Origin: a virus
Taxonomy: Duplodnaviria > Heunggongvirae > Uroviricota > Caudoviricetes
Reading direction: 5' to 3' (one strand)
Virus record (IMG/VR): IMGVR_UViG_2645727563_000006
Coordinates: 1-11,953 of that record
Length of the DNA stretch: 11,953 bases
The position numbers were made by a program, and so were the translations under genes. Shown in pieces: positions 6,043 to 11,953 of the stretch. Each line of letters begins with the position of its first letter. Position 1 is the first letter of the stretch. Under the pieces are notes generated by a model. That model was given only the letters and a program-made list of their open reading frames with translations. It did no database searches and was not told the DNA's origin.

Positions 6043-6059
6043 AAATTAATTAGAGCAAT
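6043..6059 (-). promoter_or_regulatory. P1 C1-repressor-operator-like 17-mer (ATTGCTCTAATTAATTT, 16/17 to remembered consensus ATTGCTCTAATAAATTT) in the ssb-lyz divergent intergenic region
   Basis: Read directly on the minus strand; lies about 20 bp upstream of the ssb start codon. The consensus is recalled from P1 literature, not looked up. Confidence 0.5.
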
Positions 6060-6192: not shown

Positions 6193-6750
6193 ATGAAGGG
6201 AAAAACAGCCGCAGGAGGCGGTGCAATTTGCGCTATCGCGGTGATGATTACCATCGTGATGGGTAATGGCAATGTGCGAACCAACCAGGCTGGGCTTGAG
6301 CTGATTGGTAACGCTGAAGGTTGCCGACGTGATCCATACATGTGCCCGGCAGGGGTATGGACTGACGGGATCGGTAATACACACGGGGTAACGCCGGGTG
6401 TGCGAAAAACAGACCAGCAAATCGCCGCTGATTGGGAAAAGAATATCCTGATCGCTGAACGCTGTATTAATCAGCACTTCCGGGGCAAAGACATGCCCGA
6501 TAATGCCTTCAGTGCAATGACAAGCGCGGCATTCAATATGGGATGCAATAGCTTACGGACCTACTACAGCAAAGCGCGAGGCATGCGAGTAGAAACGTCC
6601 ATCCACAAGTGGGCGCAGAAAGGGGAATGGGTGAATATGTGTAACCATCTCCCTGATTTCGTGAACAGTAACGGCGTCCCCCTGCCCGGGTTAAAGATTC
6701 GCCGTGAAGAAGAACGCCAGCTTTGCCTGACGGGGCTTGTCAATGAATAA
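6193..6750 (+). CDS. lyz: SAR (signal-arrest-release) endolysin, T4-type lysozyme fold, 185 aa; matches the organisation of P1 Lyz
   Basis: ATG at 6193 preceded by GAGG. N-terminal Gly/Ala-rich weakly hydrophobic segment MKGKTAAGGGAICAIAVMITIVMG (SAR domain) carrying Cys13, then Glu42, Cys44 and Cys51 (NAEGCRRDPYMC) at the positions described for P1 Lyz disulfide-isomerisation control. The ORF-track start at 6094 is an upstream extension. Confidence 0.93.
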   Translation: MKGKTAAGGGAICAIAVMITIVMGNGNVRTNQAGLELIGNAEGCRRDPYMCPAGVWTDGIGNTHGVTPGVRKTDQQIAADWEKNILIAERCINQHFRGKDMPDNAFSAMTSAAFNMGCNSLRTYYSKARGMRVETSIHKWAQKGEWVNMCNHLPDFVNSNGVPLPGLKIRREEERQLCLTGLVNE

Positions 6751-6994
6751 ACTCCGGCAGCTCCGCCGACTTTCGACAATGAAGTTATCGCTGGCAGCGA
6801 TAGTTTTCGACTCGATTTTCATGGCGGTATATGTGCTTAATGAAACGTGGCCACTGGAACCGCTATTGTATGCCGGGCTTCGGCTGTGCCTGACTTTTTT
6901 GAGCATGGCTGCGAGATTGATGCAGCAGAAAGAAACCGCTTCAGATTGTCCACGCCGCGCGGTGCGCAAATATATGGCACGCAGGCGAAGATGA
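6743..6994 (+). CDS. Putative small membrane protein (83 aa, two hydrophobic segments, Arg-rich C-terminus) overlapping the lyz stop; candidate lysis-associated protein, doubtful
   Basis: ATG at 6743 overlaps the lyz stop (6748-6750) with GGGG 7 nt upstream. Segments LSLAAIVFDSIFMAVYVL and LLYAGLRLCLTFLSMAARLM; C-terminus RRAVRKYMARRRR. No homology can be asserted. Confidence 0.3.
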   Translation: MNKLRQLRRLSTMKLSLAAIVFDSIFMAVYVLNETWPLEPLLYAGLRLCLTFLSMAARLMQQKETASDCPRRAVRKYMARRRR

Positions 6995-7004
6995 TTTAAC
7001 CATT

Positions 7005-7021
7005 ATTGCTCTAATAAATTT
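7005..7021 (+). promoter_or_regulatory. C1-operator-like 17-mer ATTGCTCTAATAAATTT (17/17 to remembered P1 C1 operator consensus), probable Op51-equivalent upstream of c4-icd-ant
   Basis: Exact match to the recalled consensus; paired with an inverted copy immediately downstream. Confidence 0.6.
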
Positions 7022-7037
7022 GATTTATTAGAGCAAA
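7021..7037 (-). promoter_or_regulatory. Second C1-operator-like 17-mer in inverted orientation (TTTGCTCTAATAAATCA, 14/17), forming a near-palindrome with 7005-7021
   Basis: Reverse complement of 7021-7037 read directly; the two sites together form an AT-rich inverted repeat spanning 7005-7037. Confidence 0.5.
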
Positions 7038-7210
7038 TAACCTACCATCGAACACGGCTCTATTGATCTCATCGTCGTTCAGGCTTATAGTTCCACCGTC
7101 GTAGCAAATTCTGCGACCAGGTTTGACAGCCTGAATACGAATGCGGACAACCGCAGATTTCCGATATTGCGGTATTTTTGTGTCCGTAAACCACGTTACG
7201 CCCGAATTAT

Positions 7211-7287
7211 GGTGGGGCGTGATGGGGAGGCTTCGGCCTGCTGGTTTCATTCGTGCCAGTCTGTCAACCCTGTCACGTCCTGCCACC
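7211..7287 (+). ncRNA. c4: c4-like antisense repressor RNA of the immunity-I module (77 nt)
   Basis: 77-nt segment bounded by complementary ends GGTGG (7211-7215) / CCACC (7283-7287) with an internal AGGC-TTCG-GCCT hairpin. It contains CATTCGT (7248-7254) and CTGTCAA (7261-7267), complementary to ACGAATG (7320-7326, abutting the icd RBS) and TTGACAG (7291-7297) downstream, in the order expected for antisense pairing. Length and position match the P1/P7 c4 RNA; exact ends not verifiable here. Confidence 0.5.
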
Positions 7288-7290
7288 TGT

Positions 7291-7329
7291 TTGACAGCGG
7301 GTCGCAGGTTGTTAAACCTACGAATGAGG
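7291..7329 (+). promoter_or_regulatory. Candidate c4 target sites (b'-like TTGACAG and a'-like ACGAATG) in the icd-ant leader, adjoining the icd Shine-Dalgarno
   Basis: Complementarity to the two c4-internal segments read directly; GAGG at 7326-7329 is the icd RBS. Confidence 0.45.
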
Positions 7330-7337
7330 CCGTAACT

Positions 7338-7559
7338 ATGGTTAATGCCAATCCTTGCGCACGCCCTGAATTTATCTGGCGCTTTTACTCCTGCCAGAAA
7401 CGTCACTATCACTTCGTAATTGCACCGACAGAAGATGAGGCCCGCTCTCAGCTTCCTGACGCTCCCTGCATTTTCTCTGCCCGCTTTTCCACTGATTCGC
7501 GCAACTCTCTCAGTTACTGGTGCCTCCCTGTTAACGCTTCTGCTCAGGAGGGACTATGA
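7338..7559 (+). CDS. icd: Icd-like small protein (73 aa), translationally coupled to ant
   Basis: ATG at 7338 with GAGG upstream; stop TGA overlaps the ant ATG (ATGA at 7556-7559). The ORF-track entry 7167-7559 is an N-terminal extension that would overlap the c4 RNA and is probably not translated. Confidence 0.6.
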   Translation: MVNANPCARPEFIWRFYSCQKRHYHFVIAPTEDEARSQLPDAPCIFSARFSTDSRNSLSYWCLPVNASAQEGL

Positions 7560-8647
7560 GAACGTCATTAGTCACCCGTGAAGAAATGATTGAGGCAATT
7601 GAACAGCACACATCCTGTATCAGTACCAGGGATATACCGGGTGTTATTGCCAACTACTTCATGATCACCAAACAACTTTACCGGAGAAAGGACAAGAACG
7701 CGGTTCACCGTATCCTGCTGTCTGATATCCGCGAATACCTGCTCGAACAGGGGCATCTGAATTACGCAACCGTCGCAGCCGAAGCACGCAAGGAGGCACA
7801 CAGAATGAAAGCAACTAACGTTAAATCAGAAAAAATTCATGCACCTTCAGTTCGGGAATCGGAGCTGGTGGTTGTTCAGAATCAGTCTGATGAAATTCCC
7901 GTTCTGGAATGGCTGGGAGTGCGTGTCGTAACGACCGAAACTCTTGCTAGAGGGTATAGTACCGATGAAGCCAATATTCGTAAAAATTTGTCTCGCAACT
8001 CCGATCGCTTTGAAGAAGGCAAGCATTACTATCTCTTAACCGGTTCAAAGTTAAAGGAATTTAAAAGGCTAGTGACTATTAGTCACTTGGTTAGCAAATA
8101 TACAAGTCAGGTAATTCTCTGGACAGAGCGCGGCGCTGCACGCATGTCTAAGATCGTGGACACAAATGAAGCATGGGCATTCTTTGAAAAACTGGAAGAC
8201 AGCTACTTCCGACAAAAAGAACAGCAACCGGTCTCAATTCCCCAGACGCTTCCAGAAGCTCTGCGCCTGGCTGCCGAGTTGGCAGAACAGAAAATGCAAC
8301 TGGAACAACAGCTGGTGGCCGCAGCCCCTAAAGTCGATTTTGCCGACCGGGTATCAGTGGCCAAGGGGATCCTGATTGGGAATTTTGCAAAGGTTGTTGG
8401 ACTTAAGCAAAACGCGCTGTTTGCCTGGTTACGGGAGAACGGCATCCTGATTGCGTCCGGCGGACGTAAAAATGTACCGTTTCAGCAGTACATAAATGCC
8501 GGGTATTTCACGGTGAAAGAAGTGGTGCTGGATGATGAAGATGGATACCAGATACGGTTGACGCCCCAGCTAACGGGGAAAGGCCAGCAGTGGCTGACGC
8601 GTAAACTGCTCGATGCAGGTTTATTAAAGCCTGTAGCGGCTGAGTGA
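7556..8647 (+). CDS. ant: Antirepressor Ant (Ant1, 363 aa) with nested in-frame Ant2 start at 7805 (280 aa)
   Basis: Central region VTTETLARGYSTDEANIRKNLSRNSDRFEEGKHYYLL resembles the antirepressor N-terminal (ORF6N-type) domain and the C-terminal part resembles the KilA-C/Ant C-terminal domain. A strong internal RBS AAGGAGG precedes ATG 7805, consistent with P1 Ant1/Ant2 dual products. Confidence 0.85.
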   Translation: MRTSLVTREEMIEAIEQHTSCISTRDIPGVIANYFMITKQLYRRKDKNAVHRILLSDIREYLLEQGHLNYATVAAEARKEAHRMKATNVKSEKIHAPSVRESELVVVQNQSDEIPVLEWLGVRVVTTETLARGYSTDEANIRKNLSRNSDRFEEGKHYYLLTGSKLKEFKRLVTISHLVSKYTSQVILWTERGAARMSKIVDTNEAWAFFEKLEDSYFRQKEQQPVSIPQTLPEALRLAAELAEQKMQLEQQLVAAAPKVDFADRVSVAKGILIGNFAKVVGLKQNALFAWLRENGILIASGGRKNVPFQQYINAGYFTVKEVVLDDEDGYQIRLTPQLTGKGQQWLTRKLLDAGLLKPVAAE

Positions 8648-8654
8648 TTAAATT

Positions 8655-8677
8655 AAAAAGGCGGCCTTTCGGCCGCC
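8655..8677 (-). terminator. Rho-independent terminator downstream of pro (minus strand); the hairpin may also stop ant transcription
   Basis: GGCGGCC / TTTC / GGCCGCC stem-loop at 8660-8677 preceded on the plus strand by AAAAA (8655-8659), which gives a T-run after the hairpin on the minus strand. Confidence 0.6.
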
Positions 8678-8760
8678 CGTTGAAGCAGGAACCCACCGAA
8701 ATGATTCAGGCGACAGCCTTAACGTAGCAGGAATCCACGCCCGTCAGGGCGTGGAGGGTG

Positions 8761-11491
<2,731 letters not shown>

Positions 11492-11558: not shown

Positions 11559-11953
11559 ATGAACAAGCTATCTATGGGGGTGTTTCGCTGTTCAAGTGTC
11601 AGCGAAATATTGAAATACATTAGGGCAATAACATCTCACCGAGCGCCGATTAAATACGGCGTGGAAAAGGTGGAAGGCAAAAGCTATGACCGACTGCGCC
11701 GTGAGGCGAATCAGAAGGCGATAGATTTGCTTAATTCGCTGGTGGACGGCGCGACACTGACAGATGAACAGCGCCAGATCCTGGCTGGGTACACCGGTGA
11801 AGGCGGCATTGGCGGGTCCGTCTCCGAATATTACACACCAAAGCCGATCGCTGAAGGTGTCTGGGAGATCATGAAGCTCTACGGCGCGGACGTAGGTAAC
11901 ACTCTGGAACCATCGGCGGGAACCGGCGTTTTTAATGAGACAAAACCGGTTGG
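11559..11953 (+). CDS. darB: N-terminal part of an N6-adenine DNA methyltransferase-domain protein, probably a large DarB-like protein; continues beyond the window
   Basis: ATG at 11559 with AAGGA RBS; open to the window end (131 codons). Contains EYYTPKP followed by LEPSAGTGVF, matching the (F/Y)(F/Y)TP plus motif-I (xxPxxGxGxF) arrangement of N6-adenine methyltransferases. Divergent from prt, as remembered for P1 darB. Absent from the ORF track because it is edge-truncated. Confidence 0.6.
   Translation, partial: MNKLSMGVFRCSSVSEILKYIRAITSHRAPIKYGVEKVEGKSYDRLRREANQKAIDLLNSLVDGATLTDEQRQILAGYTGEGGIGGSVSEYYTPKPIAEGVWEIMKLYGADVGNTLEPSAGTGVFNETKPV

Follow-up and report, generated by a model that had tools for sequence, protein, structure and literature searches.

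The window, by which we mean the whole 11,953-nt stretch of DNA that was analysed, is part of a P1-like plasmid prophage that is 97-98% identical to P1, P7, SJ46 and many plasmids; the related plasmids come from E. coli, E. albertii and Salmonella, and the similarity spans ddrB, ssb, lyz, lydD, pro and prt. Positions 1-1206 match an insQ/TnpB element of the IS200/IS605 type that is also found in SJ46 and in some plasmids and is absent from this place in P1. Similarity to P1 stops at position 6990 and resumes at 8765, and the 1.77 kb in between (6991-8764, plus strand) form an inserted cassette that replaces 52 bp of P1 backbone (AF234172 20034-20085) between lydD/E and pro. The insertion cuts LydE, the putative antiholin, which is identical to its P1 homologue through residue 48 and ends after 50 aa as compared to 71 aa in P1, and Pro is intact beside the cassette. 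At the right end of the cassette lies a G+C-rich hairpin (8659-8678, minus strand) that qualifies as a canonical terminator for the minus strand only, on which pro is transcribed.

The cassette carries a c4-icd-ant module, all of it on the plus strand. The leader contains the a1/b1 target sites of the C4 RNA (7085-7137; Rfam RF03163, 57.1 bits) and is followed by the C4 antisense RNA itself (7205-7290; Rfam RF01695, 69.8 bits), the b' loop of which reads ATTCGT. Downstream, icd (7338-7559, 73 aa) is a reading frame that is annotated as Icd-like in the closest plasmid and is joined through an ATGA overlap to ant (7556-8647, 363 aa), which encodes an antirepressor with a KilAC domain, 57% identical to P1 Ant1. 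Pfam recognizes ANT and ORF6N domains in this protein; the N-terminal ~90 residues and the C-terminal KilAC domain of P1 Ant1 are kept (about 95% identical), whereas the middle part is replaced by the ORF6N domain. The layout is that of immI in P1 and P7, with a C4 RNA, a1/b1 and a2/b2 targets, an icd that overlaps ant, two tandem promoters and an upstream C1 operator. In P1, however, the canonical immI is located between sim and kilA-repL, and since the module of the window sits between lydD/E and pro, with lysis genes on one side and head genes on the other, it is not the canonical immI locus. The earlier note on this DNA had named it the immunity-I module, a name that fits its genes but not its place, as it is an accessory cassette.

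The specificity of the C4 RNA resides in three hexamers, b1 (7139-7144), b' within C4 (7248-7253) and b2 (7322-7327). In the window b1 and b2 read ACGAAT and C4 carries ATTCGT, so that b1 and b2 are identical and both are the reverse complement of b'. The same relation holds in each of the 23 parsable loci, the hexamers co-varying among them, and these loci fall into four specificity classes: ACGAAT as in the window, GTTAGT as in P1, GATTGT as in P7, and a fourth, GTACAT. Because its hexamer differs from theirs, the cassette is expected to show heteroimmunity, at the level of C4, towards P1 as well as P7.

Upstream of this leader, two 17-mers in inverted orientation make up an element of 33 bp. 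The asymmetric 17-bp consensus of the C1 operator has been quoted as ATTGCTCTAATAAATTT (PMC8546580), and direct reading of the left arm (7005-7021, plus strand) gives ATTGCTCTAATAAATTT, a match at 17/17 positions; the 17-mer that the earlier note had given as the P1 C1 consensus is hence the one in print. The right arm (7021-7037, minus strand) reads TTTGCTCTAATAAATCA and matches the consensus at 14/17 positions, its mismatches being at positions 1, 16 and 17. Base 7021 is common to both 17-mers. A repeat search returned the corresponding palindrome, with arms of 14 nt each (7006-7019 and 7023-7036) that are 100% complementary around a centre of 3 nt, in agreement with the direct reading and with the inverted 14/17 copy and 33-bp near-palindrome described previously.

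At a threshold of three mismatches the window contains four C1-type sites, at 6043-6059 (minus), 7005-7021 (plus), 7021-7037 (minus) and 11613-11629 (minus), as compared to 0.03 expected, and none of 200 shuffled sequences reached four. We also scored the window with a weight matrix derived from nine of the operators that the P1 GenBank record annotates, with Oc4 excluded so that the test of the left arm stays independent. The left arm obtained the top score in the window (28.2 bits), followed by the site at 6043 (25.6 bits), the right arm (22.2 bits, third best) and the site at 11613 (16.1 bits), while the next best 17-mer of the window reached 8.9 bits. The annotated P1 operators themselves score between 12.5 and 28.2 bits, a range into which both arms fall, and the right arm comes close to the annotated operator Oc1a (23.3 bits). 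Its three deviations are each found, one at a time, among the operators annotated in P1: T1 in OrepL, C16 in Oc1a and A17 in Oc1d. The shuffle counts and the weight-matrix scores together rule out that the pair is a chance match.

The gene for the repressor, c1, is absent from the 11,953-nt window. In NZ_CP058684.1, the closest complete relative, the C1 protein is identical to P1 C1.100 at 282/283 residues, and this plasmid contains ~20 operator-like sites. Within the window, the site at 6043-6059 is the counterpart of P1 Ossb (Op21), indicating that the backbone uses the same repressor. The weakest of the four sites (11613-11629, ATTGCCCTAATGTATTT, three mismatches) lies within the darB coding sequence; P1 has an identical 17-mer at the equivalent place in the 5' portion of darB (OP279344 12605-12621, ~AF234172 17166-17182), where the P1 record has no operator annotation.

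As the earlier note had proposed, we compared the element with P1 Op51. P1 positions 48104-48354 align with window positions 6975-7215, and P1 Oc4 (48140-48156, AATGCTCTAATAAATTT) falls column for column on 7005-7021, making the left arm the positional counterpart of Oc4, which the P1 record labels as the 'monovalent C1-controlled operator Oc4', formerly Op51, controlling c4 expression. Oc4 of P1 and Op(c4) of P7 are 16/17 identical to the left arm and match it in orientation and in their position upstream of the two c4 promoters; the end of the operator overlaps the -35 of the upstream promoter in the same manner, and c4-icd-ant follows downstream in all three. To describe how general this arrangement is we gathered 79 IMG/VR loci through the Icd protein, blind to the operator, 77 of which had sufficient upstream sequence. 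A forward operator with at most three mismatches was present 331-385 nt upstream of icd in 76 of these 77 Icd-anchored loci, which makes the Op51 position near-universal in c4-icd-ant modules. Across the 23 leaders of the window type whose upstream sequence could be read, the left arm had at most one mismatch. Judged by sequence and position, the left arm is an operator of a known kind, the counterpart of Op51.

The right arm is distributed differently. P1 and P7 lack this site at the aligned position and both records annotate a monovalent operator; where the window has GATTTATTAGAGCAAA, they have GTATTTTTAAGTC(G/A)CG, with 10-11 mismatches to an inverted operator. The likeness to Op51 is thus a likeness to a single site, to which an inverted partner is added only in some relatives. 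Such a partner, with at most four mismatches, was found in 12 of the 77 Icd-anchored loci, always at an offset of 16. Among the 23 window-type leaders the mismatches of the right arm grade from 3 (10 loci) to 4, 5, 8 and 9, and in the two P1-type loci of the Icd sample there are 10-11. Nucleotide diversity, computed over the 14 distinct haplotypes of the window-type leader, was 0.041 in the left arm, 0.163 in the right arm and 0.319 in the free spacer at 7049-7062, as compared to 0.060 in the -10 of the upstream promoter-like site (P51a-like, see below) and 0 and 0.044 in the -35 and -10 of the downstream one (P51b-like). The constraint on the right arm therefore falls short of that on the left arm and the promoter hexamers and exceeds that on the free spacer, the right arm being four times as variable as the left arm and half as variable as the adjoining spacer. 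Against a second site that is required stands its decay in most relatives, P1 and P7 included, and some pairs of otherwise near-identical leaders, such as those of loci L034 and L031, differ mainly in the right arm.

The intact pair is found in four different backbone locations and on four leader haplotypes that differ at 12/25 positions just downstream, which points to retention or spread of the intact arm in some lineages, although the four-haplotype comparison is post hoc, as the loci were picked for an intact arm. We discarded 14 IMG/VR contigs with the identical 33-mer as evidence of conservation, since the pattern search that retrieved them fixed 24/33 positions, and for this reason the Icd-anchored sample replaced the pattern scan. 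A scan of the GTDB representatives, in which a single genome stands for each species, did not find the pair, a result that is uninformative because P1-like plasmids are accessories that vary at the level of the strain. Full-text searches of the literature returned no description of a two-armed Oc4.

Two promoter-like sites follow the operator. The P51a-like site (7020-7048, plus strand) consists of a -35 TTGATT (7020-7025), a 17-nt spacer and a -10 TACCAT (7043-7048), and its position matches that of P2c4 (formerly P51a) as annotated in P1. Its hexamers are present in all 14 haplotypes, TTGATT being invariant and the -10 being either TACCAT or TACTAT. It is a weak site that matches the consensus at 8/12 positions, which is why the promoter scan did not list it. 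The P51b-like site (7063-7091, plus strand), which the scan did list, is composed of TTGATC (7063-7068), 17 nt and TATAGT (7086-7091); it aligns with P1c4 (formerly P51b) of P1, its -35 is invariant and its -10 nearly so, and it is the stronger of the two. Its -35 contains a Dam site, GATC, that is invariant in 14/14 haplotypes, where P1 has TTGACC. In P1 the -35 of P2c4 overlaps the last three bases of Oc4 and P1c4 lies downstream and free. As the window keeps this layout, the right arm comes to occupy the -35 and the spacer of the P51a-like site, so that the pair as a whole covers both, whereas the P51b-like promoter begins 25 bp past the pair and is covered by neither arm. A further candidate, a promoter inside the pair in the style of P1ban with its -35 (TTGCTC) in the left arm, was rejected on direct reading, there being no -10 at the right distance.

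The earlier note had placed c4-icd-ant under C1 control. An Oc4 counterpart does stand upstream and the module follows it, yet of the two promoters only the P51a-like one is overlapped, and since the P51b-like promoter lies outside the pair, control of c4-icd-ant by C1 is probably only partial.

P1 provides two annotated bivalent operators with which the pair can be compared, Obanab (Op72ab, 68667-68694) and Oc1ab (Op99ab, 94166-94193), each of 28 bp. Like the pair of the window, both consist of two asymmetric 17-mers, inverted and tail to tail, that form a near-palindrome over a promoter or, in the window, over a promoter-like site; in the window the plus-strand arm is followed by the minus-strand arm and their AAATTT ends face each other. 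In Obanab and Oc1ab, however, the two 17-mers share the palindromic AAATTT, overlapping by 6 bp with a start-to-start offset of 11, whereas the arms of the window overlap by 1 bp over 33 bp with an offset of 16. The distance between the half-sites thus exceeds that in the two P1 bivalent operators examined by 5 bp, or about half a turn of the helix. P1 contains no pair with an offset of 16, and the closest complete plasmid has none elsewhere. Given the difference in offset, the precedent of two-site binding in P1 is not directly transferable to the window.

Taking these observations together, we consider it likely that the 33-bp element is a bivalent operator for a C1 of the P1 type, placed at the extreme left end of the accessory c4-icd-ant cassette. 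Binding of C1 to both arms, firing of the P51a-like promoter and a better performance of two sites over one are all plausible from the sequence. With C1 monomers on both arms, arranged tail to tail, the region from about -50 to -18 of the P51a-like promoter would be covered in a lysogen, and this promoter would be shut more completely than by the single site of P1, which touches only the edge of the -35. The P51b-like promoter would stay free and would keep supplying C4 RNA, which in turn would block the expression of icd and ant. It is unlikely, in our estimate, that the offset of 16 marks a distinct functional C1 architecture selected on accessory cassettes for a tight silencing of their C1-sensitive promoter that permits antirepressor modules to be stacked. 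If it did, the two monomers would sit side by side with no steric overlap, their phase shifted by about half a turn of the helix relative to the Op72/Op99 type, and P1-like plasmids could stack two or three antirepressor modules of different C4 specificities without inducing themselves.

A simpler reading is that only the left arm works and that the right arm is a leftover of the lineage or an accident, for instance of a local palindromic duplication within a promoter spacer, that contributes little or nothing to regulation, the element acting as a monovalent Op51. P1 and P7 function with a single site, the offset differs from that of the bivalent operators examined, and across the relatives the mismatches of the right arm run in a continuous series from 3 to 11, with the left arm at no more than one; the diversity of the right arm is also closer to the values of the spacer than to that of the left arm. 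Yet chance falls far short of explaining a match of 14/17 in which no position of the core TTGCTCTAATAAAT is changed, and the arm scores like the annotated operator Oc1a. It is unchanged on four leader haplotypes whose adjacent spacers differ at roughly half of their positions, and it is half as variable as the free spacer next to it. Moreover, with a sequence so near to the consensus, binding of C1 is to be expected irrespective of selection. We regard the left-arm-only reading as rather unlikely.

The palindrome could also be read as RNA. The earlier note suggested that a hairpin formed here might end the lyz transcript, and the 14-bp stem is indeed predicted to fold at -14.9 kcal/mol with a z-score of -5.1. 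There is even a vacancy for such a terminator: P1 has one downstream of lyz-lydD/E (AACCCCGGCAGCTGCCGGGGTT followed by ATTTTT, P1 20045-20066) inside the 52 bp that the cassette replaced, so that the lyz operon is left here without a canonical one, and the scanned stretches 6700-7400 and 8560-8820 held no terminator-like site on the plus strand. However, any pair of inverted operators folds into a hairpin by construction, and the stability is no more than expected of a palindromic operator. The features of an intrinsic terminator are missing, as the stem is A/U-rich, with G-C pairs at 4 of 14 positions, the tail AUAACCUACC has no U-tract and the terminator scan did not call it, and the identical pair is present in three other genomic contexts in which lyz is not upstream. 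The complementarity of the arms also decays among relatives while the left arm persists, which fits a protein site rather than a stem. That the palindrome serves as a terminator against read-through of the late lyz-lydD/E operon is for these reasons very improbable, and the suggestion of the earlier note did not hold. With the terminator of P1 missing, late lyz transcripts probably read through into the cassette.

Still more remote is the idea that the palindrome is primarily the recombination joint of a mobile immI cassette and not a regulatory element. Its appeal lies in the boundaries, for in six upstream contexts, those of the four locations and of P1 and P7, the similarity starts within ~0-3 nt of the 5' end of the left arm; the window is an exception in which weak P1 similarity reaches about 11 nt further. 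A repeat search at the right end of the cassette detected no flanking repeats, no target duplication and no operator or operator-like sequence, and it is because of this result that we rate the idea so low. In addition, there is no recombinase in the cassette, selection acting on random recombinants usually leaves module boundaries at the edges of functional units, and the left arm is fully explained as Op51.

The proposed bivalent operator belongs to a cassette that occurs in four locations, namely the lydD-pro gap, a site where it replaces ref, a site past the end of the ban operon, and the cre/c1 side. The sequence shared among the four starts a few bases from the left arm and ends ~40 bp past the stop codon of ant, beyond the G+C-rich hairpin; that the cassette spans the module from operator to terminator is as expected, since a module of this kind must bring its own regulation. 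Where the cassette replaces ref, the left arm is preceded at 77-78 bp by an additional minus-strand operator-like sequence, TATGCACTAATAAATAT (TATGCTCTAATAAATAT in locus L027); it is seen in L003 at ~2925-2941, and at -411 to -413 from icd in L027, L031, L034, L036, L037, L042-L046, L048 and L049. Owing to this extra site, some locations of the cassette have three C1-like sites.

In a further difference from the immI operon of P1 and P7, relatives carry the window-type module as one of up to three such cassettes. NZ_CP058684.1 (loci L019 and L020) has three c4-icd-ant cassettes, beside kilA-repL (the canonical place), between lydD and pro, and beside c1, with c4 genes at 37215-37302 (minus), 65655-65740 (plus) and 76952-77039 (minus); the two-armed operator is found only at the lydD/pro copy, and the other two copies have single operators and a leader of the isrK type. 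Two or three copies also occur together on at least seven of the IMG/VR contigs in the Icd sample, and extra icd-ant copies have been noted descriptively in pSvP1, pTZ20_1P and RCS47 (PMC6906374). A 105-bp query over the pair and its leader (window 6996-7100) matched 28 PLSDB plasmids. The junction of lydD with the operator was present in 16 of 5,426 complete E. coli genomes; 439 of the genomes matched at least part of the 131-bp junction query (window 6930-7060), mostly its lydD portion, and plasmid NZ_CP027575.1 of E. coli 2013C-4081 matched it at 100%.

P1-like phage-plasmids are frequent vehicles of resistance genes in E. coli. As a regulatory element the pair described here is ordinary, and its form is slightly unusual: a two-armed Oc4 is not annotated in P1 or P7, and its spacing is unlike that of the P1 bivalent operators examined. 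For the annotation of P1-like elements our results offer the Op51 position as a landmark that nearly all c4-icd-ant modules share. In a minority of the modules a second half-site is present at a spacing that is not annotated in P1, and such modules move as complete units, from operator to terminator, to several places of the backbone. The picture of P1 immunity is unchanged by this and the significance is modest. If the second arm does tighten repression, the relatives with 3, 4, 5, 8 and more mismatches would constitute a natural allelic series, which would show how a monomeric repressor makes use of paired asymmetric sites.
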